From Somniosus microcephalus (Eukaryota): DNA of 64,000 nt. The stretch is from positions 35,836,001-35,900,000 of the forward strand of contig JBMRGM010000040.1 of the NCBI GenBank assembly GCA_052327205.1, read 5' to 3'. Below, piece after piece: positions 12,775-56,300 of the stretch (position 1 is its first letter; each line of letters begins with the position of its first letter). Under the pieces are notes generated by a model. It was not told the origin of the DNA and ran no database searches. It worked only from the letters and a program-made list of their open reading frames with translations. The position numbers were made by a program, and so were the translations under genes.

Positions 12775-13742
12775 CTGTAAGAGAGAGAAAAGGGAAGCGG
12801 ATAAATTACTGATCAGACCTGGAGCCAAAGCAGCAGTTTGACGGGCTCTGGGTGAACATTCCAGCTTTGTTGCTGCATCGAGCGGTGGATACCGGTTCAT
12901 TGACCTGGGCAGCGCTTTCGGGCAGTGAAATGTTTTTAAACATGATTATCGATAATACATTGGGAAATCGATGCAGAAAGTGAATAAAGTGAGCGCCGGA
13001 TCCACTGGAAGGGTCGAGTCAAGGGTACAGTGCTGGTGGGGAAGGGAGAAGGGATTTTACAGATCCGGAATCCAAAGTGTTGTATCCGGTTTTTGGGCTC
13101 CTGACTGAAAGCCTGGAAGGTGCGGGGACAGAGGGAGGTGCTGCTGATCTGTTGCTCTTGATTAACAGAGCCGACAGGGGCTGGCACATTACGGTAAATG
13201 CCGAGAGCCGCTGAGTTTGAGGCTTCGGATCGGATTGAAAGAGGCAGCTGGAGGGCGAGCCAGTGAGTGAGAGTGGGAGGGAGACAAGGAAAAGGACATG
13301 TGGGAGTTGGAGGGGAGTCAGGGGCTGAAGGTTTAGGAAAGCGGATAATCTGAAACAATGGAAGAGGAGACAGAAGGTTCACTGCCAGGGGAGGAGAGGA
13401 TGTGATTCGCAGGGAGAGTGCAGCAGAGTGTTAGAGGAAATCTAATACATAGATCGAAGTAACACAACTTAATTCATACATTCTCCCATTAATATATGTG
13501 ATTAATGATGTCACATACGAACTCGTTGGAGACATAATGTGTTCTATAAATTTACTTAGCATATTCAATTAAAATGACACTAAAAATGTAATAATTTAAC
13601 CAGCCTCGCTTTTAGTTAATTATGATCTAGCCGAGTTTTTAAAATGGAGTATCCTCATGACGATCAACAAATGCCTGATTCTATTTTTCAATACCATTCA
13701 ATTATATTTTCATTTATACAGTTAATAAGCTTGAGCACAATA

Positions 13743-29397: not shown

Positions 29398-29490
29398 TGT
29401 GGTCTATTTATGTTAGTAAACTAACAGTATTGAATGCTCATTGCTAAGAGAGTGGTTTGTGGTATCTACTGGGCTGTTTGAGCATAAAAG

Positions 29491-30895
29491 ATGGATGTTA
29501 ATGAGGGTGAAGCTTGGTGCAAACGGAAGCAGATAGCTACTACCCATGCCATTGTGCTGAATGGTGTTGCTAACGATGACCCTGATGATTTCTTGCTAAG
29601 GGCTCTGAATTGTGTCAAAGCCTTTGGAAAGGTTAGGATAGTTGAGCGCTGCTTGGATACAGCTACCAAGAAGCAGTTTGTGTTGATCCAGACATCAGAG
29701 AACCTGCGAGGTCATGGTTTACCTGGGGCAGTTGGGCTTTCTGAAGAGGCTGGTCCCTGGCCAGTTCAGTTTGTCCCTATCACTACTAAGGAAGAAGAAG
29801 GGTTTCAGACCAAGTTGTTGTCATTATTGAGACAAGAAGGAAAGACTGTTGCTGATGTCAAAAGTCTGATAGGTCCTTCGACCCAGGATATGAACACTCA
29901 GTTGGTCAGTGCCATTAGTTCTCTGGTGGATAAATGCTCCAATCTGCCCCTCGAGGCTCAGGGATACCGTAAGCTCCGTATCTTCTCAGGAGTGAGACCA
30001 GCTCCCAGTGGGGAAGAGGAGTACGACCCCTGGGCTGAGCAGACCCTGCCTCTGCTAGAGGAATGGCAGTGCAGTGACCATGTGAAGAGGCAGAGAATAG
30101 TAGAAAGCCTTAGTGGTCCTGCTGCTGATATTGTAAGATTCTTAAAGGCGCAGAACAGCTCTGCTATTTCCTTTGACTACATGCAGGCTCTAGAAACTGC
30201 CTTTGGAACTACTGAAACCATTTCAGATTTGATGGTCAGATTCAGAAGCACATTCCAGTGTGAGGGAGAGAAGCTGTCCAGTTATCTGCTGAGAATAGAC
30301 AAACTGCTGCATTGTATGTTACGGAAAAGAGGGATTGAGTGGCCTGAAATGAATCGATTCCGCATTGAACAGGTTGTGTGAAGTGCATTGCTCGAAGACG
30401 TGACTGCTCTTCGCATACGCATGACCCATAAGTTGCGAGATCCACCTACCTTCACTGAGCTCCGAAGGGAAGTCAGAGAGGAGGAGGATATGCTTCAGGC
30501 CCGGAATGTAGCAAAGAGTGCTGTGATGTCCAAGCTTGTGACCCCTGTTACAGTTTCTACTCCTAAGGGTGCTGTCAACCCTGAGATGGAACAGCTGAAG
30601 AAGGAAATAAATGTCATGAGAGCCGAGATGGCATATTTTCGGTCTAAGCCCAACACAGAAAGGGATGACGCACGGGTGCAAAAGGTTGAACACCCTGCGA
30701 AGTCTAGCAGCAAAATGAATGATTCCTCTAAAGGATATCCCCATGAAGGAGATAGACCTTGAGTCTTTTGTTATAACTGTGGAAAGGATGGACATTTCAA
30801 GCGAGAATGTAGAGCTAAGGAAAATCTAAAAAAAAGTAAATGACCGTCTCATAAAACTTACCAAGAAGTCGGGAAACTACAAAGGGGCACAGTAA
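29491..30895 (+). pseudogene. gag: PNMA-like gag with CCHC knuckle
   Basis: YRKLRIFSG...GEEEYDPW...EWQCSDHVKRQRIVESLSGPAADIV; CYNCGKDGHFKREC. Stops at 30379 and 30760 and a probable +1 in the A-run near 30830. Confidence 0.88.
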
Positions 30896-31311
30896 CGGAA
30901 CGGCCTGCTGTCCCTGTAGTTAAGACACGTTCCGCTAAGTGCAAAAATAGACGAGTGGATATGAAAGACATCATACCTGAAGGTTTAGTAGGGCTGAGTT
31001 CTGCTGTATCAATACAGATTGAAGGAATTTATACAAAAGCTTTCCTCGACACGGGTTCTCAGGTTACCATACTGTACAGATCCTTCCATGACCGATACCT
31101 GACGCATTTGCCATTAACCCCAATCAGTCTTCTGCAGATCTGGGGCCTTAGTCCTGCTGATTACCCATATGATGGCTATTTGTCGCTGAGGTTGGAGTTC
31201 TTGGAAGCTGATGTAGGGACCACTGAGACCATTGATGCACTTGTGTTGGTTTGCCCTGACCACATGGTAAAAGGTGAGGTTTCCATACTGGTTGGCAGTA
31301 ATACACGCATA

Positions 31312-32202
31312 GTGAGCCCGGTATAAAAACCGGCGCCAAGGCAGAGGCCCGACCAGTTCGGGGGAGAGCAGCAGCAGCGGAGGTGAGCCCGGTATAAAAA
31401 CCGGCGCCAAGGCAGAGGCCCGACCAGTTCGGGGGAGAGCAGCAGCAGCGGAGGTGAGCCCGGTATAAAAACCGGCGCCAAGGCAGAGGCCCGACCAGTT
31501 CGGGGGAGAGCAGCAGCAGCGGAGGTGAGCCCGGTATAAAAACCGGCGCCAAGGCAGAGGCCCGACCAGTTCGGGGGAGAGCAGCAGCAGCGGAGGTGAG
31601 CCCGGTATAAAAACCGGCGCCAAGGCAGAGGCCCGACCAGTTCGGGGGAGAGCAGCAGCAGCGGAGGTGAGCCCGGTATAATAACCGGCGCCAAGGCAGA
31701 GGCCCGACCAGTTCGGGGGAGAGCAGCAGCAGCGGAGGTGAGCCCGGTATAAAAACCGGCGCCAAGGCAGAGGCCCGACCAGTTCGGGGGAGAGCAGCAG
31801 CAGCGGAGGTGAGCCCGGTATAAAAACCGGCGCCAAGGCAGAGGCCCGACCAGTTCGGGGGAGAGCAGCAGCAGCGGAGGTGAGCCCGGTATAAAAACCG
31901 GCGCCAAGGCAGAGGCCCGACCAGTTCGGGGGAGAGCAGCAGCAGCGGAGGTGAGCCCGGTATAAAAACCGGCGCCAAGGCAGAGGCCCGACCAGTTCGG
32001 GGGAGAGCAGCAGCAGCGGAGGTGAGCCCGGTATAAAAACCGGCGCCAAGGCAGAGGCCCGACCAGTTCGGGGGAGAGCAGCAGCAGCGGAGGTGAGCCC
32101 GGTATAAAAACCGGCGCCAAGGCAGAGGCCCGACCAGTTCGGGGGAGAGCAGCAGCAGCGGAGGTGAGCCCGGTATAAAAACCGGCGCCAAGGCAGAGGC
32201 CC
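31312..32202 (+). repeat. 71-bp tandem monomer array (12 full copies plus a 39-bp partial) at the CR1 5' end
   Basis: Unit GTGAGCCCGGTATAAAAACCGGCGCCAAGGCAGAGGCCCGACCAGTTCGGGGGAGAGCAGCAGCAGCGGAG; only one variant base noticed (~31682). Confidence 0.97.
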
Positions 32203-32428
32203 ACCAAATCAACAGCAGAGGAGAGGTAAAAAGTAATCCAAGTGTGACGTCACCAGGGAGCAGGTAAGTGATTGGTTGGTGAGTATTTCTCTCTTTTCAA
32301 TACAAGCTTGAATTCTGTGGTGTTACATTTCTGTGGTGTAGTGGGGACAGTTGGTAAATAAAGCGCCCTAGAGTATACCTGTAACTGGGGTATTGAATAA
32401 AATTTTTAATTAATTAAAGGAGTAAGTC

Positions 32429-33367
32429 ATGGGAGGAGAGCTCAGACCCGTGTTCTGCTCCTCTTGCTCCATGTGGGAAATCAGGTAAGCTGCCAGTGTC
32501 CCTGACGACCATGTGTGCGGGAAATGCATCCAGCTGCAGCTACTTGCAGACCGCATTGCGGCGCTCGAGCTGCAGGTGGATGAATTTTGGAGCATGCGCG
32601 ATGCTGAGAGGCTCGTGGATAGCACGTTTAGCGAGTTGTTCACGCCTCAGGGCAGGGCGGCACAGGGGGTGACCATCAGGCGGAGCAACAAAGGCAGGCA
32701 GGTAGTGCAGGGAACCCCTGCGGGCATCCCCCTTTCAAACAAGTATACCGCTTTGGATACTGTTGAGGGGGATGACTCACCAGGGGAAGGCAGCAGCAGC
32801 CAACTTCCTGGCACTGGGGGTGCTCCTGCTGCCCAGGAAGGGGGGAAAAAGAGTGGGAGAGCAATAGTGGTAGGGGATTCTATAGTAAGGGGAACAGATA
32901 GGCGTTTCTGTGGCCGTAGACGTGAATCCAGGATGGTTTGTTGCCTCCCTGGTGCCAGGGTCAAGGATGTCACTGAGCGGCTGCAGGGCATTCTGGAGGG
33001 GGAGGGTGAACAGGCAATGGTCGTGGTCCACATTGGTACCAACGACATAGGTAAAAAGAGGGATGAGGTCCTGCATCAAGAATTTAGGGAGCTAGGTAAC
33101 AGATTAAAGAGCAGGACCTCAAAGGTTGTAATCTCTGGATTACTCCCAGTGCCACGTGCTAGTAAGTATAGGAATGGGAGGATAGAGCAGATGAATGCGT
33201 GGCTAAAGAGTTGGTGTAGGGGGGAGGGTTTTACTTTCCTGGATCACTGGGCCTGCTTCTGGGAAAGGTGGGACTTGTACAAGTCGGACGGGTTGCACCT
33301 GAACCAGAGCGGGACAAATATCCTTGCGGGGAGGTTTGCTAGCACTGTTGGGGGGGGTTTAAACTAA
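32429..33367 (+). pseudogene. CR1 ORF1 (CxxC...CxxC zinc finger, coiled coil, SGNH esterase) with one nonsense codon
   Basis: ATG at 32429 gives MGGELRPVFCSSCSMWEIR*, with in-frame TAA at 32486-32488; then CGKC, VGDSIV, HIGTND and DGLHLN. Confidence 0.88.
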
Positions 33368-36285
33368 CTTGGCAGGGGGATGGGATACAGAGGGGAGCTG
33401 AAATAGGGGGGGATGTGCTGCCAATTATAGAGAAAAAAACAAGTCAGCTTGGTAGACAGGGCAAATATATAAGGGCAAGGCTGGATGGCATCTATTTTAA
33501 TGCAAGGAGTCTTGCGAATAAGGTGGATGAACTGAAGGTGTTGATAAACACATGGGAGTATGATATTGTTGCTATCACGGAGACATGGTTGAGGGAAGGG
33601 CAAGACTGGCAGCTCAATATTCCGGGGTACAGAATCTTCAGGCGAGACAGAGGTGGAGGTATAAGAGGAGGGGGTGTCGCAATATTAATTAAGGAGTCAA
33701 TTACTGCAGTAAGGAGGGATGATATATTAGCAGGGTCCTCCAATGAGGCCATATGGGTGGAGCTTAAAAACAAAAAGGGGGCAAGCACTTTGCTGGGAGT
33801 GTACTATAGGCCTCCAAACAGTCAGGGGGAGATAGAGGAACAGATATGTAGGCAAATCTCAGAGAAATGTGCAAATAATAGGGTAATAATAATGGGGGAT
33901 TTCAACTTCCCCAATATTAACTGGGATAGTCAGAGTGTGAAAGGCTCAGAGGGTGTAGAATTCTTAAAGTGCATCCAGGAGAGCTTTTTGAGCCAGCATG
34001 TAGAAAGTCCTACAAGAGAGGGGGCGGTACTGGACCTAATTCTAGGGAATGTGGCCGGCCAAGTGGAAAAAGTGCTAGTAGGTGAGCACTTTGGTGATAG
34101 TGACCATAATATGGTAAGATTTAAGGTGGCCATGGAAAAGGACAGGGATGGGCCGGAAATAAAGGTTCTAAATTGGGGGAAGGCCGATTTTAATAGGATA
34201 AGGCAGGATCTGGCCAAAATGGACTGGGATCAGCTACTTGTAGGAAAATCCGCATCGGAGCAATGGGAGGCTTTCAGAAGGGAGATTGAGATCATACAAT
34301 GGCAACATGTTCCCGTAAAGGTCAAGGGTGGTTCCAAAAACCACAGGGAACCTTGGATGTCAGGGGATATACGGGAATGGATTAGGAAAAAAAGGAGGGC
34401 TTTTGGTAGATACAAAAGGCTAAAGACGGAGGAAGCCCTAGAGGAGTACAAAAAGTGCAGGGGGATACTTAAAAAAGAAATTAGGAGATCAAGGAGGGGC
34501 CATGAAATAACACTGGCAAGCAAAATAAAGGAAAATCCGAAGATGTTTTATAAGTATATTAAGGGTAAGAGGATAACTAGGGAAAAAATAGGGCCCATTT
34601 GGGACAAAAGTGGCAATCTGTGTGTGGAGCCGGAAGATGTAGGAGGGGTTCTGAATGAATTTTTTGCGTCTGTTTTCACTATGGAGAAGGACGATGTAGA
34701 CATAGAAATAGGGCGGGGGGACTGTGATATGCTCGAACATATTAACATCGAGCGGGGGGAGGTATTGGCGGTTTTAGCTGGCCTAAAAATGGATAAATCC
34801 CCAGGCCCGGATGAAATGTATCCCAGGCTGCTGTGTGAGGCAAAGGAGGAGATTGCGGGGGCTCTAACACATATATTCAGGACCTCTCTGGCCACAGGGG
34901 ATGTGCCAGAGGACTGGAGAACCGCTAATGTAGTACCATTATTCAAGAAGGGTAGTAGGGAAAAACCGGGGAACTACAGGCCAGTGAGCCTAACATCAGT
35001 GGTAGGAAAATTATTGGAAAAAATCCTGAGGGACAACATTTGTCTCCACTTGGAGAGGCAAGGATTAATCAGGGATAGTCAACATGGCTTTGTCAAGGGA
35101 AGATCATGTCTGACTAATTTGATTGAATTTTTTGAGGGGGTGACTAGGTGTGTGGATGAGGGTAACGCAGTGGATGTGGTATACATGGATTTCAGTAAGG
35201 CCTTCGATAAAGTCCCGCACAGAAGACTGGTCAAGAAGGTAAGAGCCCATGGAATCCAGGGTGCCTTGGCACATTGGATACAAAACTGGCTTAGTGGCAG
35301 AAGGCAGAGGGTGATGGTCGAAGGTTGTTTTTGTGACTGGAAGCCTGTGGCCAGTGGGGTACCACAGGGATCGGTGCTGGGTCCCTTGCTGTTTGTGGTC
35401 TACATTAATGACTTGGATATGAATGTAAAGGGTATGATCAGTAAGTTCGCGGATGATACAAAAATTGGTAGGGTGGTAAATAGCGAGGAGGGTAGCCTCA
35501 GTCTGCAGGACGATATAGATGGGTTGGTCAGATGGGCGGAACAGTGGCAAATGGAATTTAACCCGGAAAAGTGCGAGGTGATGCACTTTGGGGGGACTAA
35601 CAAGGCAAAGGAATACACAATGAATGGAAAGACCCTAGGCAAGACGGAGGGTCAGAGGGATCTGGGTGTGCAAGTACACAGATCCCTGAAGGCGGCGGAA
35701 CAGGTGGATAAGGTGGTAAAAAAGGCATATGGGATACTTGCCTTCATTAGCCGAGGCATTGAATATAAGAGCAAGGAGGTTATGATGGAGCTGTATAAAA
35801 CACTGGTTAGGCCACAGCTGGAATATTGTGTGCAGTTCTGGTCGCCACACTACAGGAAGGATGTGATCGCGTTAGAGAGGGTGCAGAGGAGGTTCACCAG
35901 GATGTTACCAGGGCTGGAGCGCTTCAGCTATGAAGAGAGACTGGGCAGGTTGGGTTTGTTTTCCTTGGAGCTGAGGAGGCTGAGGGGGGACATGATTGAG
36001 GCGTACAAAATTATGAGGGGCATAGATAGGATGGATGCTGAGGAGCTTTTTCCCTTAGTAGAGGGGTCGATAACTAGGGGGCATAGATTCAAGGTAAAGG
36101 GCGGGAGGTTTAGAGGGGATTTGAGAAAGAACTTTTTCACCCAGAGGGTGGTTGGAGTCTGGAACTCACTGCCTGAAAGGGTTGTGGAGGCAGTAACCCT
36201 CACAACATTTAAGAAGCATTTGGATGTGCACTTGAAATGCCATAGCATACAAGGCTACGGGCCAAATGCTGGAATATGGGATTAG
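33358..36285 (+). CDS. CR1 ORF2 (APE endonuclease plus reverse transcriptase), uninterrupted
   Basis: YFNARSL, AITETW, GDFN and SDHN endonuclease motifs; PQGSVLGP and FADD RT motifs. The frame is open from 33343 and the first ATG is at 33892, so the true start is uncertain. Confidence 0.92.
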   Translation, partial: FKLTWQGDGIQRGAEIGGDVLPIIEKKTSQLGRQGKYIRARLDGIYFNARSLANKVDELKVLINTWEYDIVAITETWLREGQDWQLNIPGYRIFRRDRGGGIRGGGVAILIKESITAVRRDDILAGSSNEAIWVELKNKKGASTLLGVYYRPPNSQGEIEEQICRQISEKCANNRVIIMGDFNFPNINWDSQSVKGSEGVEFLKCIQESFLSQHVESPTREGAVLDLILGNVAGQVEKVLVGEHFGDSDHNMVRFKVAMEKDRDGPEIKVLNWGKADFNRIRQDLAKMDWDQLLVGKSASEQWEAFRREIEIIQWQHVPVKVKGGSKNHREPWMSGDIREWIRKKRRAFGRYKRLKTEEALEEYKKCRGILKKEIRRSRRGHEITLASKIKENPKMFYKYIKGKRITREKIGPIWDKSGNLCVEPEDVGGVLNEFFASVFTMEKDDVDIEIGRGDCDMLEHINIERGEVLAVLAGLKMDKSPGPDEMYPRLLCEAKEEIAGALTHIFRTSLATGDVPEDWRTANVVPLFKKGSREKPGNYRPVSLTSVVGKLLEKILRDNICLHLERQGLIRDSQHGFVKGRSCLTNLIEFFEGVTRCVDEGNAVDVVYMDFSKAFDKVPHRRLVKKVRAHGIQGALAHWIQNWLSGRRQRVMVEGCFCDWKPVASGVPQGSVLGPLLFVVYINDLDMNVKGMISKFADDTKIGRVVNSEEGSLSLQDDIDGLVRWAEQWQMEFNPEKCEVMHFGGTNKAKEYTMNGKTLGKTEGQRDLGVQVHRSLKAAEQVDKVVKKAYGILAFISRGIEYKSKEVMMELYKTLVRPQLEYCVQFWSPHYRKDVIALERVQRRFTRMLPGLERFSYEERLGRLGLFSLELRRLRGDMIEAYKIMRGIDRMDAEELFPLVEGSITRGHRFKVKGGRFRGDLRKNFFTQRVVGVWNSLPERVVEAVTLTTFKKHLDVHLKCHSIQGYGPNAGIWD

Positions 36286-39200
36286 ATTAGACAGGGCTTG
36301 ATGGCCGGCGCGGACACGATGGGCCGAAGGGCCTCTATCCGTGCTGTATTACTCTATGACTCTATGACTCTATGACTCCTGACAAGCTGCAAAGAGCAGG
36401 GACGTGAAAACTTCTTGAGCACCAGACACATTCACCCTGTTTTCAAAAAGGCTTTTGAGAAACTGCCTGAACTTTCTTCTGACGTAGATGATAGCAAAAG
36501 AGGAACTGTGTGGTACGTTCGAGCCAAACCTATCACCCTGCGTCCTGGAGGAGTGGCTAGAATCCCTGGGATACCAAAATTCCCTGGAACGCCAGGTACT
36601 GAAGCCATTCTGATAGAGTCACCTGATAATCCTGCAGAAGTGTCACGGTTTCCAAATGAGCTTCTGGTGAGACCAGAGTTGCAGACCCCGACAGCTCTGA
36701 TGTCAAGGAGAGTTACAGTGACCGTGAGGAATATGTCAGGCAAAGGAATCACATTGAGGAAAGGAATGCCGATTGCGCATCTGTTTCCTGTAAATGTAAT
36801 GTCGTCACATGTGAAGGAAGAGTCCAAAGTTAACTCAACCGGAGATCTGACACTCTCCTCCTTCAACTTTGGAGATTCATTCGTTCCTAAAGAATGGAAG
36901 GACCGATTAGTCAGGAAGATGATGGAGCGGAGAGGAGTTTTCTCTACTCATGAGTTTGATGTTGGTTGTAGTAAGAGTTCTCGCCATTCTATCAGAATTA
37001 CCGAGGATAAACCCTTTCGGGAGAGGTCTCGACGGCTGGCACCAGCTGACATCGAAGCAATGAGATAGCACCTGTCGCAGTTAAAAGAAGCTGAGATCAT
37101 TACCGAGTCCAGGAGTCCTTATGCATCTCCTATAGTGGTGGTGAGGAAAAAGAACGGAAAGATTCGGATGTGTGTGGACTTTAGGACGCTGAACAGACGT
37201 ACTGTTCCCGACCAATACACCGTTCCAAGAATTGAGGATGCACTGGCTTGTCTTAATGGAAGCAAGTGGTCCAGTGTGTTGGATCTCAGAAGTGGATACT
37301 ACCAAATACCAATGAGTGAATCGGACAAAGAAAAGACAGCAATTTTATGTCCAGTTGGGTTCTACCAATTTGAAAGGATGCCACGGGGAGTTTCAGGTGC
37401 TCCAGCAACTTTTCAAAGAATAATGGAACAAACAGTTGGGGACATGAACATGCTCGAAGTATTGGTGTACTTGGATGATATCATTGTGTTTGGGGCAACC
37501 CTTGAAGAACACGAATCTCGGTTGCTGAATGTGCTTGGTCGCCTGGAGGATGAAGGTCTCAAGCTATCATTGGACAAGTGTCAGTTTTGCCAAACATCCG
37601 TGTCCTATGTGGGGCATATTGTATCACAGGATGGAGTTGCCACAGATCCATCCAAGATCGAAGCTGTTACCACATGGCCCAAACCGAACACAGTTACTGC
37701 CTTGCGGTCATTTCTTGGGTTCTGTGGATATTACAGGTGCTTTGTGCAGGATTACTCCAAAGTGGCCCATCCTCTGAATCAGCTGCTGGCTGCTTACCTC
37801 CCACCAGCCAAGAGGAAGAAAAAGGCTAAAGGTAAAGAGAACAAGGACTACTTCAAACCCTCTCAGCCTTTTGGTGTTAGATGGGATGAGAAATGCGAAG
37901 AGGCCTTCAACACCTTAAAGCAAATTCTTACTCAAGCCCCCGTATTGGCTTTTGCAAACCCACAGCTGCCATATGTGCTACACGTGGCTGCCAGTCAAGA
38001 AGGGTTGGGTGGTGTGTTGTATCAGGACCAAGGAGCAGGGTTGAGACCTGTAGCGTTCATCAGTCGCAGTCTTACGCCATCAGAGCGTAACTACCCAGCT
38101 CATAAGCTAGAATTCTTGGTGCTGAATTGGGAGGTGGTGGATAAGCTGCAGGATTATCTGTATGGAGCGAAGTTTGAAGTGATGACAGACAATAATCCAT
38201 TAACCTATGTGTTGACTTCGGCAAAACTTGATGCCACCGGCCACCGCTGGCTTGCTGCACTATCTGCTTACGACTTTAGTCTCAGGTACAGACCTGGGAA
38301 CCAGAACATTGACGCAGATGCTCTGTCTCGTCGCCCACACTACCAGAAACCAGAGTGGAAAGATGTTGCTTCAGCAAATGTGAAAGTAATGTGTCAGATG
38401 TCCGTGGTATCTGGACCAAAGAATTCATTTCATGCCCGAGAGATTGACCACTTGGGAGCGTCAATGCATGTTGTTCCCCAGGCATTTTGCAACCTTTCCA
38501 GTTTGGATGTATAAAACTTACCCATGTTGTGTTCATCTGAAATAGCCAAAGAACAGGAGGATCCCTGTATTCATGAGGTGTTTTCAGCTCTCCGTCTGGG
38601 TGATATTACATAGATCGACAAATCAAAACATCCTGACTGTCGTCTGCTCCTAAGAGAATGGGACCACTTGGAAATTAGAGAGGGAGTGTTGTGTAGAATC
38701 ACTCACCCACCCACTAAACCATGCCATTCACAGTTGGTCCTGCCTGAAAAGTACAGGGAAATAGTGATGAAGTCTTTGTATGATGACGCAGGTCATCTGG
38801 GAGTAGATAAGGCCTATGGGTTGGTCAAGGACAGATTCTACTGGCCGCGTATGAAGTCTGCGGTTGAGAAGTTCTGCAAGTCCTGTGCACGTTGTGTCCA
38901 GAGAAAGACTTTATCTAAAAGAGTTGCTCCTCTGTTTCACATGCAAAGTGATGGACCTCTAGACCTTGTCTGAATGGATTTTCTGTCCATCGAACCCGAT
39001 TCCAGCAATACCGCAAATGTCTTGGTCATTACAGATCATTATACTCGCTATGCCGAAGCTTTTCCCACAAAGGATCAGAAAGCATCCACCGTTGCCAAAG
39101 TGTTGTGGGAGAAATACTTCATCCACTATGGACTGCCAAAGCGAATACACAGTGATCAAGGTAGAGACTTTGAAAGTAGACTTATACATGAGTTGTTGTC

Positions 39201-39922
39201 CATGCTCGGGATTGAGAAGTCAAGAACAAATCCATACCATCCTCAGGGAGATCCTGAACCTGAGCGGTTTAACTGTAATTTGTTAGACATGCTTGGAACG
39301 CTGGATTCAAAGCGAAAGAACAAGTGGAGTCGGCACATTGGACATCTTGTTCATTCTTATAATTGTACCCGAAATGACGCTACTGGTTTTTCACCGCACT
39401 ACCTCATGTTTGGACATGAAGCGAGGATGCCGGTGGATTTGTGCTTCGGAGTATCCAGTGATGGCACATCACAGAGAACTTACCTCAAGTATGTATCTGA
39501 CATGAGAAAGGAATTGCAAGCTGCTTATGAACTTGCTGATTCTGTTTCTGCCAAACAGAATAAAGGAAATAAGCAGAGGTATGACCAGAAGATCCGTTTT
39601 TCCCAACTCATGCCTGGTGACCGTGTTCTCATACGGAACCTAGGACTTCAAGGGAAACATAAGTTAGCAGACCACTGGGCTTCTACACCTTACATTGTTG
39701 AAAGTCAAATGTCACAACTACCTGTGTTTCGGCTAAAACCTGCAGGTGGGAATGGATCCATAGAAATACTGCACCGGAATCATATCCTGCCATTGGGAAA
39801 GCAAGTGCATCTGGATCTGCCAGCGGATAATGAGCCGACACCTAGTAGGAGAACCCTGCAGAGAAGAAGAAGGAAAAAACGAGAAAACAGGAAAACTTTG
39901 TTCCAGAAGAGAGAAAACCCAT

Positions 39923-40185
39923 TTTGGACACAGGGACAGATTATCCTTTGAATCCATGTAAATGGAGAATGTATGTTTACTATGTCTAGATTCATTCTAA
40001 TATATGCAAATGTCTAATTTAGTTCATTGACCTGTAATCTTCTTATACTGTCTGACGTTAAAACTATAAAGTAAGATAATTAGAACTAAGCCATTGTAGC
40101 AGTGATCTCCTTACTGGACTATAGAAAACTGTCTACAACAGAGACCACATCTCACATATATCTAGAGAACCGTGAAGGAGTTACA
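39923..40185 (+). repeat. Truncated 3' LTR
   Basis: Matches 29114-29376 with about 8 differences; fused directly to the integrase tail, with no PPT. Confidence 0.9.
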
Positions 40186-44800: not shown

Positions 44801-46957
44801 GCTGGTCGTATTGCATAGGGTACCGGTCTGGCTTTGAAAAAATTTGGGTGTGCATGTTCATCAATCTTGATGTTTGCCGTAATTCCTCTCAGTGTTCCCA
44901 GTCCCTGCTGGAACACCTCTTTAGCATCATCCAATATTCTGGACAATCGTTTAGGTTTGACATCTGTTTCCCCGGAATCTACCGTTAGTGCCTTTAAGCA
45001 GTGCCAGTCCATATTCATTTTCCTAATCCACTCCCGTCCCAGTAGTGGTGGATCTCCTTCAGGTAGCACATATAAGTCAATTTCTTGGCTTTCTTTGCCC
45101 TTGTGGACCACTTTTACCTCTATCTTTCCGATGGGTTACACTCTTTGACCCGTGTATGTTTTCAATATAATCTCCGTATCCCGTAGGGGAATATGTTGGA
45201 ATAACCTTTTGTAATCTTTCTTATTCATGACCGTCAATGCCGATCCAGTGTCCAATTCCATCTTTACTTGGACTCCTGCTATCTGATGAGTGACCCAAAT
45301 TGCCTGGAGATCTGCATCCTTACCAACGTTGTGTACTCTTAAGCTACCCAGTTCATTACTGCTGGCGTCTGAATCTGACTTCTGGTCGTTCGAACTGTTC
45401 TTTGTCACCTTGTGTACCTTTATGTATTTTCCTTGCGGTGACTTTTTGTTGCTGGTCTTCTTTCCTGACCTGCAGACTTTAGCTATGTGGCCAAGCCTGC
45501 CACACGTTCTGCATTCTTGGTTTTAAAACCAACACTGGTTCTGATCGTGCGTTGTCTTTCCACAACGATAACATTTTACAGTACTCAAAACCAATTGATT
45601 TGTACTGAGTTCCGGTGACCGTAGCTGCATTACTGCCATGCCTCTCGCTGTGGCCTCGTGTGCTGCTGCCATAGTGACCGCTTTCTCAAGTGCCAGCTCA
45701 TTCTCCTCGAGCAATCGCTTTTGTGTATCTTCTTTTAATAAACCACACAAAAATTTATCTCGTAGTGCCTCTGTCAGTCTCGTTCCAAATTGACAGTACT
45801 TTGCTAGCTTACGCAATTCCATTAAATATTCAGCATTGCTTTCCTCCTTCAGCTGCCTTCTGCTGTAAAATATAAATCGTTCCGCTAGCATCAGCGGCGT
45901 GGGGTTTAGGTGATTTTTCAGGCAGTAACAATCTCCTCGAACGTCTTATCCGCCGGTTCATCTGGTGTTAAAAGGTGTTTCAAATGCCCGTATGTCTTCG
46001 CACCCATTAAGTTTAATAATGTTAGTGCTTTCTCTTCATCTGGGATTTTATTTGCTTTACAATAATTTTGTATGCATGATACATACATAGCCCAATCTTC
46101 GTTGTCGCTATCAAAGGTATTAATGTTCCCATGTTTAGGCATCGTTGCAATTTAATTCATTTTTATTTTTATCCAAGATGGCGGCTTCCGCGCTCTTGTC
46201 TTCATCCTCCGCCTACAAAATGGCGGTTTTCCCGCGCTTGGCGATCTTCACCCGTCCCCCGACACTGTCTCAGCTTCACCGCGGCTCTCGCGCCTTCAGT
46301 TGCCCCCAGACGCTGCGCCTTTTAGCCCAAATGTGGCCCGGCCCTTATCACCAGCTGCGATCGCTGTCCCCGTGCTGCGCCTTTCGGCCCGAATGCGGCC
46401 CGGCTCTTATCTCCGGTCACGATCGATCTCACCGCCCTTATTCCTCCGTCTTCCCTCCGCGTCTGTACAGCCAACGCGGCCGACTTTCTGGTCACGTCGC
46501 TGCCCGGCTTACCCACTACCAAGGTAGAAAGAAGATAGCTGACTGCCGCTGATGAAGGCTTCGAGTTCAGGATATCTTCTGCACTCTGGTTTCTCGATGT
46601 CTGCGGCGCGACGTGTCTTCCAGCACGGTGATGAGGGTGGAAGCCTCTCTTCGACGTCCGTTCTGTGACAAAGCCGCGGTGGATATAACTGCCACAGGGT
46701 AAGAATCTGACTCATCGCCATTGTAAAGTCTGTGTGTTCTAGTTGTAATTAATAAAACACAGACTACAAGATTAAAGTTCAACAGGTCTTTACTGGTTGG
46801 AGGTCAGGACTATACTAAATACAATCTTACTACACAGTGCTTATATACCGGTGGTCACCACCGGTATTACGTATACAGCAGCCAGAGAAAGTAGTACATC
46901 TCTTAAGGTGGAACAGGCTTAAGTTCTCTTAAGGTGGAACAGGTTACATACACCACA
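41860..46957 (-). mobile_element. Gypsy LTR retrotransposon (K02A2.6/Mag-like), degraded ORFs, chimeric LTR
   Basis: LTRs 41860-42104 and 46722-46957; PBS TGGCGATGAG (tRNA-Ser-like) at 46720-46711; PPT at 42105-42117. MELDTGSA, ICGDFKITIN, YLDDILI, ACDASPYGIG and HIDFAGP motifs. Confidence 0.92.
42191..46142 (-). pseudogene. gag-pol of the third Gypsy
   Basis: Fragmented ORFs in gag-PR-RT-RH-IN order with multiple stops and frameshifts. Confidence 0.88.
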
Positions 46958-49302
46958 AGGTGTGTATGTTGTTTCACAGTGTATCAGGATCCTGCCAGGT
47001 GTGTATGGGGTTTCACAGTGTATCAGGATCCTGCCAGGTGTGTATGGGGTTTCACAGTGTATCAGGATCCTGCCAGGTGTGTATGGGGTTTCAGAGTGTA
47101 TCAGGATCCTGCCAGGTGTGTATGGGGTTTCACAGTGTAACAGGATCCTGCCAGGTGTATATGGGGTTTCACTGTGTATCAGGATCCTGCTAGGTGTGTA
47201 TGGGGTTTCAAAGTGTATCAGGATCCTGCCAGGTGTGTATGGGGTTTCACAGTGTATCAGGATCCTGCCAGGTGTGTATGGGGTGTCAAAGCGTATCAGG
47301 ATCCTGCCAGGTGTGTATGTGGTTTCACAGTGTATCAGGATCCTGCCAGGTGTATATTGGGTTTCACAGTGTATCAGGATCGTGCCAGGTATATAGGTGG
47401 TTTCCACAGTGTATCAGGATCCTGACAGTTGTATATGGGGCTTCACGGTTTATCAGGTTCCTGCCCGGTGTGTATGGGGTTTCACAATGTATCAGGATCC
47501 TGGCAGGTGTTTTTGGGGTTTCACAATGTATCAGGATCCTGCCAGGTGTGTATGGGTTTTCACAATGTATCAAGATCCTGTCAGGTGTGTATGCGGTTTC
47601 ACAGTGTATCAGGATCCTGCCAGGTGGGTATGTGGTTTCACAGTGTATCAGGATCCTGGCAGGTGTTTATGGGACTTCACATTGTAACAGGATCCTGCCA
47701 GGTGTGTATGGGCTTTCACAGTGTATCAGGATCATGCAAGATGTGTGTGGGGTTTCACAGTATATCAGGAACCTGCCAGGTGTGTATGGGGTTTCACAGT
47801 GTATCAGGATCCTGCCAGGTGGGTATGTGGTTTCACCGTGTATCAGGATCCTGCCAGGTGTGTATGGGGTTTCACAGTGTATCAGGAACCTGCCAGGTGT
47901 GTATGGGTTTTCACAATGCATCAGGATCCTACCAGGTATATATGGGGTTTAACAGTGTAACCGGATCCTGCCAGGTGTCTGTTGGGTTTCACAGTGTATC
48001 AGGATCTGGCCAGGTGTGTATGGGGTTTCACAGTATATCAGGATCCTGCCAGTTGTGTATGGGGTTTCACAGTGTATCAGGATCCTGCCAGGTGTGCATG
48101 TGGTTTCATAGTGTACCAGGATCCTTCCAGGTGTGTATGGGTTTTCACAGTGTATCAGGATCCTGCCAGGTGTGTTTAGGTTTTCAATGTGTATCCGGAT
48201 CCTGCCAGGTGTGTATAGGATTTCACAGTGTATCAGGATACTGCGGGGAGTGTGTGGGGTTTCACAGTGTATCAGGAACCTGCCAGGTGTGTATGGGGTT
48301 TAACAGTGTATCAGGATCCTGCCAGGTGTGTATGGGGTTTCACAGTGTATCAGGATCCTGCCAGGTGTGTATGGAGTTTCACAGTGTATCAGTATCCTGC
48401 TAGGTGTGTATGGAGTTTCACAGTGTATCAGTATCCTGCTAGGTGTGTATGGAGTTTCACAGTGTATCAGGATCTTGCCAGGTGTGTATGGGGTTTCACA
48501 GTGTATCAGGGTCCTGCCAGGTGTGTATGGGGTTTCGCAGTGTATCAGGGTCCTGCCAGGTGTGTCTGGGGTTTCACAGTGTATCGGGATCCTGCCAGGT
48601 GTGTATGGGGTTTCGCAGTGTATCAGGGTCCTGCCAGGTGTGTATGGGGTTTCACAGTGTATCAGGATCCTGTTCGGTGTGTATGGGGTTTCACAGTGTA
48701 TCAGGGTCCTGCCAGGTGTGTATGGGGTTTCCCAGTGTATCAGGATCCTGCCAGGTGTGTATGGGGTTTCACAGTGTATCAGGGTCCTGCCAGGTGTGTA
48801 TGGGGTTTCACAGTGTATCAGGATCCTGCTCGGTGTGTATGGGTTTCACAGTGTAACAGGATCCTGCCAGGTGTGTATGGGGTTTCACAGTGTATCAGGA
48901 TCCTGCCAGGTGTGTATGGGGTTTCACAGAGTATCAGGATCCTGCTCGGTGTGTATGGGGTTTCACAGTGTAACAGGATCCTGCCAGGTGTGTATGGGGT
49001 TTCACAGTATATCAGGATCCTGCCAGTTGTGTATGGGGTTTCACAGTGTATCAGGATCCTGCAAGGTGTGTATGGGGTTTCACAGTGTATCAGGATCCTG
49101 CCAGGTGTGTAGGTGGCTTCCACAGTGTATCAGGATCCTGACAGATGTATATGGGGCTTCACGGTTTATCAGGATCCTGGCAGGTGTTTTTGGGGTTTCA
49201 CAATGTATCAGGAACCTGCCAGGTGTGTATGGGGTTTCACAGTGCATCAAGATCCTGCCAGTTGTTTTGGGGGTTTCACAATGTATCAGGATCCTGCCAG
49301 GT

Positions 49303-49412
49303 GTCATAGAGTCATAGAGTCATAGAGTAATACAGCACGGATAGAGGCCCTTCGGCCCATCGTGTCCTCGCCGGCCATCAAGCCCTGTCTAATCTAATCC
49401 CATATTCCAGCA
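49303..49412 (-). mobile_element. Severely 5'-truncated CR1 (3' tail only)
   Basis: Reverse complement matches ~36267-36376 with one mismatch, including the (ACTCTATG)n tail; flanked by GTGT. Confidence 0.92.
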
Positions 49413-52400
49413 GTGTGTATGTGGTTTCACAGTGTATCAGGATCCGGCCAGTTGGGTATTTGGTTTCACAGTGTATCAGGATCCTATCAGGTGTTTAAGG
49501 GATTTCACATTGTATCAGGATCCTGCCAGGTGTGTCTGGGCTTTCACAGCGTATCAGGATCCTGCAAGGTGTGTGTGGGGTTTCACAGTGTATCAGGATC
49601 CGGCCAGGTGTGTATGGGGTTTCACAGTGTATCAGGATCCTGCCAGGTGGGTATGTGGTTTCACCGTTTATCAGGATCCTGCCAGGTGTGTATGGGGTTC
49701 ACAGTGTATCAGGAGCCTGCCAGGTGTGTATGGAGTTTCACAATGCATCAGGATCCTACCAGGTGTATACGGGGTTTAAAAGTGTAACCGGATCCTGCCA
49801 GGTGTCTGTTGGGTTTCGCAGTGTATCAGGATCTGGCCAGATGTGTATGGGGTTTCACAGTGTATCTGGATCCTGCCAGTTGTGTATGGGGATTCACAGT
49901 GTATCAGGATCCTGCCAGGTGTGTATGGGGTTTCACAGTGTTTCAGGTTCCTGCCAGGTGTGTATGGGGTTTCACAGTGCATCAGGATCCTGCCAGGTGT
50001 GTATGGGGTTTCACAGTGTATCAGGATCCTGCCAGGTGTTTATGGGGTTTCACAGTGTATCAGGATCCTGCCAGGTGTGTATGGGGTTTCACAATGCATC
50101 AGGATCCTACCAGGTGTATATGGGGTTTCACAGTGTATCAGGAACTGCCAGGTGTGTATGGGGTTTCACAATGCATCAGGATCCTACCAGGTCTATATGG
50201 GGTTTAACAGTGTAACCGGATCCTGCCAGGTGTCTGTTGGGTTTCACGGTGTATCAGGAACTGGCCAGGTGTGTATGGGGTTTCTCAGTGTATCAGGATC
50301 CTGCCAGGTGTGTATGGGGTTTAACAGTGTATCAGGATCCTGCCAGGTGTGTATGGGTATGGTATTCAAAATGTATCAGGATCCTGCCAGGTGTCTCTGG
50401 GGTTTCACAGTGTATCAGGATCGTGCCAGGTTTATGGGGTTTCAGTGTATCAGGATCCTGCCAGGTGTGTATGGGGTTTCACAGTGTATCAGGATCCTGC
50501 CAGGTGCATATGGTGTTTCACAGTGTATCAGGATCCTGCCAGGTATGTATGGGGTTTCAAAGTGTATCAGGATCCTGCCAGCTGCGTATGGGGTTTCACT
50601 GTGTATCAGGATCCTGCTAGGTGTGTATGGGGTTTCACAGTGTAACAGGATGCTGCCAGCTTTGTATGAGGTTTCACAGTGTATCAGGATCCTGCCAGGT
50701 ATGTACGGGGTTTCACAGTGTATCAGTATCCTGCCAGGTGTGTATGGGGTTTCACAGAGTATCAGGATCCTGCCAGTTGTGTGTGGGGTTTCACAGTGTA
50801 TCAGGATCCTGCCAGGAGTGTGTGGGGTTTCACAGTGTATCAGGATCCTGCCAGGTGTGTGTGGGGTTTCACAATGTATCAGGATCCTGCCACGTGTGTA
50901 TGGGGTTTCACAGTGTATCAAGATCCTGCCAGGTGTGTATGGGGTTTCACAGTGTATCAGGATCCTACCAGGTGTGTATGGGGTTTCACAGTGTATCAGG
51001 ATCCTGCCAGGTGTGTATGGGGTTTCACAATGTATCAGGATCCAGCCTGGTGTGTATTGGGTTTCACAGTGTATTAGAATCCAGCCAGATGTGTATGGGG
51101 TTTCACAATGTATCAGGACCCTGCCAGGCAGTTAAAGGGTTTCTCAGTGTATCAATATCCTGCCAGGTGTGTGTGGGGTTTCACCGTGTTTCAGGATCCT
51201 TCCAGGTGTTTGTGGGGTTTCACAATGTATCAGGATGCTACCAGGTGTGATTGGGGTTTCACAGTGTATCAGGATCCTGCCTGGTGTGCATTGGGATTCA
51301 CAGTGTATCAGGATCCTGCCAGGTGTTTATGGGGTTTCACAGTGTATCAGGATCCTGCCAGTTGTGTATGCGGTTTCACAGTGTATCAGGATCCTGCCAG
51401 GTGTGTATGGGGTGTCACAGTGTATCAGCTTCCTGCCAGGTGTGTATGGGGTTTCACAGTGTATCAGGATCCGATCAGGTGTGTATGCGGTGTCACAGAG
51501 TATCCGCTTCGTGGCAGGGGTGTATGGGGTGTCTGAGTGTATCAGGATCCTGCCAGGTGTGTATGGGGTTTCATAGAGTATCAGGATCCTGCCAGCTGTG
51601 TATGGGGCTTCACAGTTTATCAGGATCCTGCCAGGTGTGTATCGGGTTTCACAGTTTATCAGGATCCTGCCAGGTGTGTATGGGGATTCAGTGTATCAGT
51701 ATCCTGCCAGGTGTGTATGGGGTTTCACAGTGCATCTGGAACCTGCCAGGTAGTTAAGGGTTTTGTCAATGTGTCAGGATCCTGCCAGGTGTGTATGTGG
51801 TTTCAGAGTGTATCAGGGTTTTGCCAGGTTTCTATGGGGTTTCACAGTGTATCAGGATCATGCCAGGTGTGTATGGGGTTTCACAGTGTATCAGGATCCT
51901 GCCAGGTGTGTATGGGGTTTCACAGTGTATCAGGATCCTGCCAGGTGTGTATGCGGTTTCACAGTTTATCAGGATACTGCCAGGTGTGTATGTTGTTTCA
52001 CAGTGTATCAGGATCCTGCCAGGTGTGTATGGGGTTTCACAGTGTATCAGGATCCTGCCAGGTGTGTATGGGGTTTCACAGTGTATCAGCATCCTGCCAG
52101 GTGTGTATGAGATTTCGCAGTGTATAAGGATCCTGCCGTGTGTGTGGGGTTTCACAGTGTATCAGGATCCTTCCTGGTGTGTATGGGGTTTCACATTGTA
52201 TCAGGATCCTGCCAGGTGTGTATGGGGTTTCAGAGTGCATCAGTATCCTGCCAGGTGTGTATGGGGTTTCACAGTGTAACAGGATCCTGCCAGGTGTGTA
52301 TGGGGTTTCACAGTGTATCAGGATCCTGCCAGGTGTGTATGGGGTTTCACAGTGTATCAGGATCCTGCCTGGTGTGTATGGGGTTTCACAGTGTATCAGT

Positions 52401-53333
52401 ATCCTGCCAGTGTGTATGGGGTTTCACAAAGTATCAGGATCCTGCCAGGTGTGTATGGCGTTTCACAGTGTATCAGCATCCTGCCAGGTGTGTATGGGTT
52501 TTCACAGTTTATCAGGATACTGCCAGGTGTTAATGGGTTTTACAGTGTGTCAATAACCTGCGAGTTGTGTATGGGTTTCACAGTTTATCCGGATCCTGCC
52601 AGGTGTGTATGTGGTTTCACAGTGTATCAGGATCCTGCCAGATGTGTATGGGGTTTCACAATGTATCAGGATCCTGCCAGTTGTGCATGGGTTTCACAGT
52701 GTATCCGGATCCTGCCAGGTGTGTATGGGGTTTCAGAGTGTATCAGGATCCTGCCAGGTGTGTATGTGTTTTCATAGAGTATCAGCATCCTGCCAGGTGT
52801 GTATGGGTTTCACAGTGTATCCGGATCCTGCCAGGTGTGTATGGGGTTTCTCAGTGTATCAGGATCCTGCCAGGTGTCTATGGGGTTTCACAGTGCATTC
52901 AGGATCCTGCCAGGTGTGTATAGGGTTTCACAGAGTATCAGGATCCTGCCAGGTATGTATGGGATTGCACAGTGTTTCAGGATCCTGCCAGATGTGTATT
53001 GGGTTTCACATTGTATCAGGAACCTGCCAGGTGTGTATGGGGTTTCACAGTGTATCAGGATCTTGCAAGGTGTGTATGGGGTTCCACAGTGTATCAGAAT
53101 CCTGCCAGGTGTGTATGGGATTTCACAGTGTATCAGAATCCTGCCAGGTGTGTATGGGATTCCACAGTGTATCAGAATCCTGCCAGGTGTGTATGGGATT
53201 TCACAGTGTATCAGAATCCTGCCAGGTGTGTATGGGATTTCACAGTGTATCAGAATCCTGCCAGGTGTGTATGGGGTTCCACAGTGTATCAGAATCCTGC
53301 CAGGTGTGTATGGGATTTCACAGTGTAGCAGTA

Positions 53334-56300
53334 TCATAGATTCATAGAGTCGTAGAGTTATACAGCACAGAAAGAGGCCCTTTGGCCCATCGTGTCTGCG
53401 CCGCCCATCCATCCCTGTCCAGTCTAATCCCATTTTCCAGCATTTGGTCCATAGCCTTGTATGCAATGGCATTTCAAGTGCTCATCCAAGTGCTTCTTGA
53501 ATGTTGTGAAGGTTCCTGCCTCTACCACCCTTTCAGGCATTGAGTTCCAGATTCCAATCACCCTCTGGGTGAAAAAGTTCCTCCTCAAATCCCCTCTAAA
53601 CCTCCTGCCCCTTACCCTGAATCTATGCCCCCTTGTTATTGACGCCTCTACTAAGGGGAAAAGTTCCTCTTTATCTACCCTATCTATGCCCCTCATCATT
53701 TTGTGCACCTCACTCAGGTCCCCCCTCAGCCTTCTTTGCTCCAAGGAAAACAACCCCAGCCTGTTTAGTCTTTCTTCATAGCTGAGACGCTCCATCCCAG
53801 GTAACATCCTGGTGAATCTTCTCTGCACCCTCTCCAAAGCAATCACATCCTTCCTATAGTGAGGCGACCAGAACTGCACACAAGACTCCAGCTGTGGCCT
53901 TAACAGCGTTTTGTACATCTCCATCATAACCTCCCTGCTCTTATATTCTATGCCTCGGCTAATGAAGGCAAGTATCCCATATGCCTTTTTAACCACCTTA
54001 TCTACCTGTTCCGCTGCCTTCAGGGATCTATGTACATGTACACCAAGGTCCCTCTGACCCTCTGTACTTCCTAGGATCCTGCCACTCATTGTGTATTCCC
54101 TTGCCTTATTTGTCCGTCCAAAATGCATCACCTCGCACTTTTCAGGGTTAAATTCCAATTGCCACTTTTCCGCCCATCTGACCAACTCGTTTATATCGTC
54201 CTGCAGCCTGAGGCTTTCGTCCTCGCAATTTACCACCCCACCAATTTTCGTGTCATCCGCGAACTTACTGATCATACCTTTCACATTCTCATCCAAATCA
54301 TTTATGTAGATCACAAACAGCAAGGGACCCAGCACCGATCCCTGAGGTGCCCCACTGGACACAGGCTTCTAGTCACAAATGCAACTTTCGACCATCACCC
54401 TCTTCCTCCTGCCACTCAGCCAGTTTAGGATCCAACGCAACAAGGCACACTGGATCCCATGGGCTCTTACCTTCTTGACCAGTCTCCTATGCGGGACTTT
54501 GTCAAAACCTTTGTTGAAGTCCATGTAAACCACATCCACAGCATTTCCCTCATCCACACTCCTAGCCGCCCCCTCGAAAAATTCAATCAGATTTGTCAGA
54601 CATGATTTACCCTTGACAAAGCCATGCTGACTATCCCCGATTAATCCTTGCCTCTCCAAGTGGAGACTAATTTTGTCCCTCAGAATTTTTTTCCAATAAT
54701 TTCCCTACCACAGATGTTAGGCTCACTGGCCTGTCATTCCCTGGTTTATCCCTGTTACCCTTCTTGTATAATGGTACTACGTTAGCTGTTCTCCAGTCCT
54801 CTGGTACATCCCCTGTGGCCAGAGAGGTTCTGAAAATTTGTGTCAGAGCCCCTGCAATCTCCTCCTTTGCCTCATACAACAGCCTGGGATACATCTCGTC
54901 CGGGCCTGGGGATTTATCCAATTTTTGGCCTGCTAAAACCGCTAGTACCTCCTCCCTCTCGATGCTAATATGTTCAAGTATGTCACAGTCCCCTTGCCCG
55001 ATTTCTATGTCTACATCGTCGTTCTCCATAGTGAACACAGATGCAAAAAATTCATTTATAACCCCGCCTACATCATCTGGCTCTGCACACAGATTGCCAC
55101 TTTGGTCCCTAATGGGCCCTACCCTTTCCCTGGTTATCCCCTTGCCCTTAATATACTTATAAAACATCTTAGGATTTTCCTTTATTTTGCTCGCCAGTGT
55201 TATTTCATGGCCCCTCCTCGCCCTCCTAATTTCTTTTTTAAATATGCCCCTGCACTTTTTATACTCCTCTCGGGCTTCTGCCGTCTTTAGTCTTTTGTAA
55301 CTGCCAAAAGCCCCCCTTTTTTCCCTAATGCATTTTTGTATATCCCTTGTCATCCAAGGTTCCCTTTGCTTGTTGGTCCCACCCTTGACATTTACAGGAA
55401 CATGTTGGCGTTGTACTCTCTCTATTTCCCTTCTGAAAGCCTCCCACTGTTTTGATGTGGATTTTCCTATAAGTAGCTGCTCCCAGTCCAGTTTGGCCAG
55501 ATCCTGCCTTATCGTATTAAAATCGGCCTTCCCCCAATTTAGAACCCTTATTTCCGGGCCGTCTTTGTCTTTTTCCATGACCACCTTAAATCTCACCGAG
55601 TTATCGTCACTGTCGCCAAAATGCTCTCCTACTGACTCTTCCACCACTTGCCCAGCTACATTCCCCAGAATTAGGTCCAGTACCGTCCCCTCTCTTGTAG
55701 GACTTTCTACATGCTGGCTCAAAAAGCTCTCCTGGATGCACTTTAAGAATTCTGCACCCTCTAAGCCTTTCACACTCTGACCATCCCAATTAATATTGGG
55801 GAAGTTGAAATCCCCCACGATTATTACCCTATTATTTTAGCACTTCTCTGAGATTTGCCTACATATCTGTTCCTCTATCTCCCCCTCACTGTTTGGGGGC
55901 ATATAGTACACTCCCAGCAAAGTCCTTGCCCCCTTTCTGTTTTTAAGTTCTACCCATTTGGCCTCATTAGAGGACCCCGCTAATATATCATCCCTCCTTA
56001 CAGCAGTAATTGACTCCTTAATTAATATTGCAACTCCCCCTCCCCTTTTACACCCCCCTCTGTCTCGCCTGAAGATTCTATGCCCCGGAATATTGAGCTG
56101 CCAGTCCTGACCCTCCCTCAACCATGTCTCTGTGATAGCAACAATATCGTACTCCCATGTGTTCAACAACAACTTCAGTTCATCCACCTTATTTGCAAGA
56201 CTCCTTGCATTAAAATAAATGCCTTCCAGCCCTGCCATATTCCCTTTTGCCATCACATGTTTGCTCTGCCTTCCCAGCTGACTTGTTTTTTCCTCCGTAT

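Follow-up and report, generated by a model that had tools for sequence, protein, structure and literature searches.

Vertebrate CR1 elements in which the first open reading frame (ORF1) encodes an esterase probably express the second (ORF2) by −1 programmed ribosomal frameshifting (PRF) at the heptamer U_UUA_AAC, which would generate an ORF1-ORF2 fusion protein. The element from which this reading starts is a full-length CR1 long interspersed nuclear element (LINE) located at approximately 31312-36378 on the forward strand of a 64,000-nucleotide stretch of Somniosus microcephalus DNA (contig JBMRGM010000040.1, positions 35,836,001 to 35,900,000; hereafter the window, to whose numbering all positions refer). 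In birds, reptiles and cartilaginous fish, CR1 is the principal LINE. Such a fusion had been proposed in a first-pass annotation of the same DNA. The heptamer, its phase and the variability of the adjoining stop codon, from cartilaginous fish to birds, argue for it; two of the arguments then offered, a downstream stem and a missing ATG, did not hold.

The ORF1/ORF2 junction in the window

ORF1 (32429-33367, forward strand) encodes a CxxC..CxxC finger, a predicted coiled coil and an SGNH/GDSL esterase (Pfam PF13472, E 4e-16), with a profile match to the ORF1 esterase of PDB 4C1B (E 1e-40), and its product ends in G-L-N. The 3′ end of the frame reads GGG GGG GGT TTA AAC TAA. The heptamer T_TTA_AAC (33358-33364), the predicted −1 shift site, lies in the X_XXY_YYZ phase of ORF1 directly before the stop codon (TAA, 33365-33367; TAG or TGA in other lineages), as annotated, and the coordinates were confirmed. 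The −1 frame opens at 33343, after a TAG, 15 nt upstream of the heptamer, and overlaps ORF1 by 25 nt, again as annotated. It then runs without a stop for 980 codons, up to 36285 (33343-36285, forward strand), through a 45-codon linker, an APE endonuclease and a reverse transcriptase (Pfam PF03372, PF14529 and PF00078); its first ATG was correctly placed at 33892. Two features of a −1 PRF cassette, the in-phase X_XXY_YYZ heptamer and a downstream ORF open in the −1 frame, are thus present.

A second CR1 copy (53334-56399, reverse strand) is 87.9% identical to the first, is 5′-truncated 32 nt upstream of the heptamer and has an ORF2 interrupted by stops. Its heptamer (56361-56367, reverse strand) has the same phase, stop and G-run as that of copy 1, and an identical 27-mer at 56367-56341 on the reverse strand bears out the earlier statement that the phase is retained; in-frame ATGs occur at 56253 and 56238. 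The run of eight G at 33350-57, considered as a shift site in its own right, is not kept in this copy.

The string TTTAAAC alone is common, with 12 occurrences on both strands of the window, and only its conservation across lineages is above chance. Fixation of the heptamer is not explained by codon bias, because TTA accounts for 13 of the 107 Leu codons of the element and AAC for 21 of its 45 Asn codons.

Conservation of the heptamer at the DNA level

The annotation had called for the conservation and phase of TTTAAAC to be checked across CR1 families, and both are kept at 18 consensus junctions and at two loci from a metagenome scan. That scan yielded 28 loci. A fish-type locus (L001) reads CAT TTA AAC TAG, and its −1 frame runs open into the endonuclease without a preceding Met; a bird-like locus (L004) reads GCT TTA AAC TAA. 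No other locus has an intact junction, those of L002 and L021 being decayed and the remaining loci stopping short of the junction or being unrelated. As a separate observation, a stop closes the −1 frame exactly 15 nt upstream of the heptamer in all four DNA loci (33337-33342 in copy 1, copy 2, L001 and L004); in crane and stork gene models the −1 frame is open further upstream of the heptamer.

About 1,000 consensus sequences are given in the supplement of PMC13343379, apparently with only their first 400 letters searchable. Querying it with the motif TTTAAACTA returned 23 matches, of which, by eye, 17 are ORF1/ORF2 junctions (11 with TAG, 6 with TAA) and 6 are not. One further consensus has the junction with TGA, which brings the total to 18 junctions with all three stops in 12 species: a halosaur, bowfin, coelacanth, bullfrog, alligator, crocodile, bearded dragon, chimaera, stingray, sawfish, catshark and dogfish. 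When 17 synonymous heptamer strings were used instead, 52 matches were obtained and none lay at a CR1 junction among the 47 examined. In a search anchored on the endonuclease, 8 rows were returned, 4 of them showing the junction, and the heptamer was kept in 3 of the 4. Conservation of the heptamer beyond amino-acid need, a third feature of a −1 PRF cassette, is therefore present, subject to the ascertainment caveats given below.

Other searches were less informative. Of three TTTAAACTA matches in the supplement of PMC4316615, the two examined lie in the 3′ end of ORF2. A comparison of contigs gave no variant at 33355-33368 among the 40 of 62 rows listed, which is weak evidence, since the 80% cut-off favours conserved seeds. 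Scans of viral contigs, prokaryote genomes, plasmids and phages yielded no vertebrate CR1 junction.

It is very unlikely that TTTAAACTA and the G-run following it are a non-decoding signal, such as one for splicing (a branch point or acceptor), for internal promoter activity or for protein binding, with ORF2 translated from a separate or spliced RNA. The motif also occurs in the 5′ untranslated region (UTR) of two dogfish CR1 consensi, donor-like sites lie at 32264 and 32485, and CTAAC followed by CAG/G is similar to the consensus of a branch point with its acceptor. However, no acceptor with a pyrimidine tract was found in 32200-33900, no joint at the junction appeared among the contigs compared (a comparison confined to contigs), and a signal of this kind need not keep codon phase or switch to the GGA AAC and AAA AAC types described below. 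A splice-donor-like CAG/GTAAGT is present in the CR1 5′ UTR (32258-32275), and a similar CAG/GTAGGT is present in two TTTAAACTA-bearing dogfish consensi.

C-termini of ORF1 homologues

The C-terminus L-N-stop occurs in 70 of 115 ORF1 homologues, down to 30% identity, from sharks, rays, chimaera, sturgeon, frogs, turtle, lizards and birds. Of the 45 homologues that do not end in L-N, many are fragments or broken copies; when only the 82 proteins whose last esterase motif lies near the C-terminus are counted, the proportion is 70 of 82. The residue before L-N takes 12 identities and is encodable by a T-ending codon in 69 of the 70 proteins; the residue two before L-N is E, Q, K, M or W in 41 of 70. 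Three vertebrate-type CR1 proteins (P0007, P0080 and P0116) have been deposited under the names of Pseudomonas, a flatworm and Carnobacterium, and host contamination is the probable cause.

In a set of representatives (the best 150 at 50% identity), 76 end in Asn, comprising 57 LN, 10 GN, 2 KN and 7 others. Terminal tripeptides fit X_XXY_YYZ in 68 of these 76, compared with 245 of the 1404 internal tripeptides ending in Asn. Before terminal LN, residues with pyrimidine-only codons number 21 and those with purine-only codons 1; before terminal GN the corresponding numbers are 0 and 9. No such upstream bias is seen for internal LN (20 vs 18 of 95) or internal GN (15 vs 14 of 87). Judged from these sequences, the upstream residue switches with the terminal dipeptide, as the heptamer demands.

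More distant ORF1s end in Gln-Gly-Asn or carry x-Lys-Asn, which are compatible, at the protein level only, with G_GGA_AAC and A_AAA_AAC. In 7 proteins x-K-N lies 27 residues after the motif, and the stop follows 11-13 codons further on, so that the site is not tied to the stop. The heptamer type thus appears to switch among three of the four most shift-prone sites.

These comparisons bear on the possibility that the esterase simply needs a C-terminal Leu-Asn and that codon choice and shared descent brought about the heptamer as a side effect. The dipeptide comes after the last helix region, and its Leu could pack against the fold; all vertebrate CR1s, moreover, have a common ancestor. Such a coincidence is nevertheless highly improbable, as TTA, AAC and the preceding T are fixed while the adjacent stop varies, and G-N and K-N take the place of L-N in other clades. 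In addition, of six relatives that carry the D-G-L-H-P motif, five lack a terminal L-N, and the profile match to PDB 4C1B breaks off four positions short of the end of the profile.

The ORF2 linker and its start codons

In 23 of 405 proteins, F-K-L is followed by 33-108 uninterrupted codons up to the endonuclease. These proteins come from one stingray, several birds and one tortoise, and most are stork copies. The linker Met stands at 4, 17, 18, 35, 82, 87 or 93 codons, and 2 of the 23 have none. No start position is common to lineages among the loci, consensi and proteins compared, and by eye the linker of SquAca_CR1-1 contains no ATG in any frame.

The late first ATG of copy 1 had been taken as an argument for frameshifting. 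It results from a subfamily deletion and the argument was given up: relative to copy 2, 15 nt are missing at 33472-33480 (forward strand), a piece that includes an in-frame ATG located 9 codons before the endonuclease Asn; sister copies carry this ATG in a good position. Two other organisms carry the form without the ATG in abundance: X8 record 29 (no gap and 1 mismatch, at a depth of 512) and X17 record 9 (no gap). This abundance suggests that the form spread without that ATG.

An alternative is that ORF2 is made as a separate protein by termination and reinitiation, with restart at UAAUG, at an AUG before the endonuclease or without an AUG, the heptamer serving as a pause or termination signal. 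This route is unlikely, even though several observations favour it. The subfamily of the window has the strong-context ATG 9 codons before the endonuclease Asn; TAATG occurs in ScyCan_CR1-1a, SquAca_CR1-17a, SquAca_CR1-6c and L004; and, according to a passage of PMC1965478, any sense codon is tolerated at the start of ORF2 in the mammalian LINE L1, so that lack of an AUG alone is no proof of frameshifting and does not separate it from reinitiation. What reinitiation does not predict is an exact in-phase X_XXY_YYZ, a change between LN, GN and KN accompanied by corresponding changes in the upstream codons, or a KN group with its stop 11-13 codons further on. Nor is any AUG position shared between lineages, and SquAca_CR1-1 has none in its linker. 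Stop-start coupling in particular finds no UAAUG to use in either window copy or in L001, in all of which TAATG is absent.

Sequences downstream of the heptamer

Four G-runs are present downstream of the site, as annotated. A G5-A-T-G3 motif (33375-33384, forward strand) begins 11 nt after the heptamer and is either a candidate 3′ stimulator or a coding G-[DE]-G in the −1 frame; the element's top-scoring 25-nt window by a G4Hunter-like measure begins at 33371. In all four DNA loci, 5-6 consecutive G start exactly 11 nt past the heptamer, and by eye a run of at least four G lies at +7 to +14 in 13 of the 18 consensi (at +11 in 5 and at +10 in 4). The peptide encoded by the G-run in the −1 frame is K-G-E-G in birds vs Q-G-D-G in sharks. 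The G-run, conserved downstream of the stop and upstream of most AUGs, may act as RNA or as peptide.

The 7-bp inverted repeat that had been put forward as the stimulating structure (TTGGCAG, 33369-75, and CTGCCAA, 33418-24; 33369-33424, forward strand) is present, but its role is not supported by conservation or by folding. It folds no better than shuffled sequences (z −0.88 and −0.08; −0.66 with quadruplexes allowed) and has no counterpart in L001 or L004; the 3′ arm falls within a variable linker, with T>A at 33419 in 41 X1 contigs. A conserved four-run G-quadruplex was likewise rejected, only the first one or two runs being kept and the fold being no better than that of shuffles. In Rfam, nothing came close to a gathering score.

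Proposed mechanism and its weight

In the proposed mechanism, most ribosomes would stop at the ORF1 stop codon and release the ORF1 protein, and a minority would slip back one base, with tRNA-Leu and tRNA-Asn re-pairing on UUU AAA. The slipped ribosomes would read on through the linker, endonuclease and reverse transcriptase, giving a junction of L-N followed by L-T-W. Frameshifting would set a fixed, low ratio of ORF2 to ORF1 and would tether the enzyme to ORF1 protein oligomers through the coiled coil; with no protease encoded, the fusion would remain uncleaved. Stimulation probably comes from the G-run about 11 nt downstream, from slow termination at the adjacent stop, or from both, rather than from the 7-bp stem. 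Initiation of ORF2 at an AUG may also occur in some subfamilies.

Several observations weigh against this mechanism. Some concern how the evidence was gathered: the 17 consensus junctions were found by querying with the motif itself, the homologue counts come from related sequences and are not phylogenetically independent, and the GN and KN heptamers are deduced from protein alone. The consensi of PMC13343379 drop bases, so that linker frames are not reliably readable, and the F-K-L gene models, most of them from stork, are open by construction. Other observations concern the heptamer and the sequence that follows it. The gecko consensus EubMac_CR1-1 is without the heptamer in the endonuclease-anchored check, and in L040, an esterase LINE of greater distance, the ORFs overlap by 157 nt in −1, with ATGs in frame and without the heptamer; the mechanism is therefore not universal to esterase ORF1s. 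The G-run is missing in 4 of the 18 consensi and lies at +4 in 1, and no stable hairpin or pseudoknot partner was found downstream in the four loci (z −0.9 to +0.6), so that the stable structure 5-9 nt downstream expected of a −1 PRF cassette is lacking.

The remaining points against frameshifting concern start codons. The strong-context ATG 9 codons before the endonuclease Asn is present in copy 2 and ScyCan_CR1-14, and also in the loose ends of 30 contigs (X1) and 8 contigs (X7). The usual form of the subfamily has this ATG, and absence of an AUG is not a family trait. In one stork family, a Met is often present some 15 codons ahead of the endonuclease. TAATG, with its ATG in the ORF2 frame, is found in 3 of the 18 consensi (ScyCan_CR1-1a, SquAca_CR1-17a and SquAca_CR1-6c) and in L004; it would be derivable from TAG-TG by one transition.

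A conserved ATG upstream of the endonuclease, together with synonymous variation of the heptamer, had been named beforehand as the pattern that would speak against a fusion. Such an ATG was found within the subfamily only and not across families, and no synonymous variation was found at the junctions examined. Frameshifting accounts for the heptamer and its phase as well as for the open linker and the scattering of Met residues, and is compatible with secondary AUG starts.

A broader proposal can be put forward tentatively: that the dominant LINE of most vertebrates has used −1 frameshifting since before the split of sharks and bony vertebrates, making an uncleaved fusion of ORF1 esterase, endonuclease and reverse transcriptase; that its stimulator is a single-stranded G-run at +11, acting as a G-quadruplex or host-protein site, with no pseudoknot; and that related clades have swapped the heptamer for G_GGA_AAC or A_AAA_AAC. 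If frameshifting is correct, it would be a third route to LINE ORF2, beside L1-type reinitiation and stop-start coupling. The predicted protein would be a fusion of about 1,290 residues and not a free ORF2 protein, which would change the scoring of intact ORF2 in surveys that require a start codon and would be relevant to building assays of CR1 retrotransposition. Should the stimulator prove to be the G-run, this would be a natural example of a G-rich frameshift stimulator.

The element and its surroundings

The window element has the features of esterase-type CR1: an APE-reverse transcriptase ORF2, an ORF1 with zinc finger, leucine zipper and SGNH esterase, and 3′ short tandem repeats without poly(A). 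Its junction closely resembles, by eye, rows labelled CR1 in PMC13343379, and the named ORF1s closest to its own come from sharks and rays (65-67% to a sawshark), pointing to a cartilaginous fish as the probable host. Because of a premature TAA at 32486-88 in ORF1, copy 1 is itself incapable of making the fusion. The 5′ end consists of an array of 12.6 copies of a 71-bp unit (31312-32206, forward strand); the units are near-perfect and contain TATAAAA, and the array may be a tandem promoter. The 3′ tail (36347-36378, forward strand) comprises four 8-bp repeats (TATGACTC).

The CR1 is inserted into a gypsy-like element (29488-39951), which it splits; by eye, gag- and protease-like frames lie before 31326 and reverse transcriptase- and integrase-like frames after 36376. 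Copy 2 is flanked by long degenerate short-unit satellite arrays (46900-53350 and 56400-63260) that contain many spurious ORFs. Elsewhere in the window, a 311-codon ORF at 11870-12805 on the reverse strand resembles, by eye, a G-protein-coupled receptor.

Two observations concern other esterase LINEs. L040:1890-2046 is host-like LINE sequence inside a contig of a bacterial metagenome-assembled genome. L012:807-1742 is a distant esterase ORF followed by TGA CTA and then by an endonuclease in the same frame, which resembles stop-codon readthrough and not frameshifting; a Met also lies 30 codons past the stop. UGA-CUA is a readthrough context.

Relation to known systems

The window element is a member of the vertebrate CR1 group with an esterase ORF1, described in passages of the two surveys as ORF1 type IVB of CR1 subgroup 7 (Metcalfe and Casane, PMC4120745) and as Canonical-CR1 (PMC13343379). 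In these passages the group is characterized by an ORF1 with zinc finger, leucine zipper and esterase, an APE-reverse transcriptase ORF2 and 3′ short tandem repeats. The word "frameshift" is absent from the main texts of both papers, whose relevant passages do not address how ORF2 is translated, and "overlap" and "start codon" are absent from the main text of the 2026 survey (PMC13343379). "CR1" is absent from the first 300,000 of the 449,034 characters of a 2016 review of frameshifting (PMC5009743). No report of CR1 frameshifting was found in the full-text literature searched, a coverage that excludes the CR1 papers of 1997-2003 and most subscription papers, and novelty is claimed provisionally. 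The 1997 papers on chicken and turtle CR1 reportedly described ORFs that overlap or lie close together, and a frameshift may already have been proposed in them.

Among other LINEs, mammalian L1 likewise has a bicistronic RNA and, according to a passage of PMC1965478, makes ORF2 without a fixed AUG; unlike those of CR1, its ORFs do not overlap and it has no slippery site. The TAATG arrangement of SART1 recurs in some CR1 lineages, and most CR1 junctions examined are without it. In SART1, translation of ORF2 involves UAAUG coupling. The Dictyostelium elements TRE5-A and TRE3-A are also APE-type LINEs, and a −1 frameshift is stated in a figure legend of PMC5911963 to be required for translation of their ORF2; they belong to another clade and another host and have another ORF1.

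Among viruses, −1 PRF at U_UUA_AAC (1a/1b of the coronavirus infectious bronchitis virus, and the retroviral gag-pol type) shares with CR1 the heptamer, its phase, an ORF2 in the −1 frame and a downstream polymerase, and related CR1 clades appear to use other top viral shift sites, as these are given in a portion of PMC5009743. CR1 differs in being a non-long-terminal-repeat element with no protease and in having a G-run at about +11 instead of a pseudoknot or strong hairpin. The same portion of that review states that natural stimulation of frameshifting by a G-quadruplex was anticipated but unknown as of 2016, and that nsp2TF of PRRSV depends on protein-stimulated frameshifting, with a short single-stranded motif (CCCANCUCC) 11 nt 3′ of the shift site. 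The CR1 G-run lies at the same distance, a likeness that is positional only, the viral motif being C-rich and that of CR1 G-rich. Because the canonical 3′ structure is missing, the CR1 junction is not classed as a canonical −1 PRF member, but it appears to function like a viral −1 cassette.

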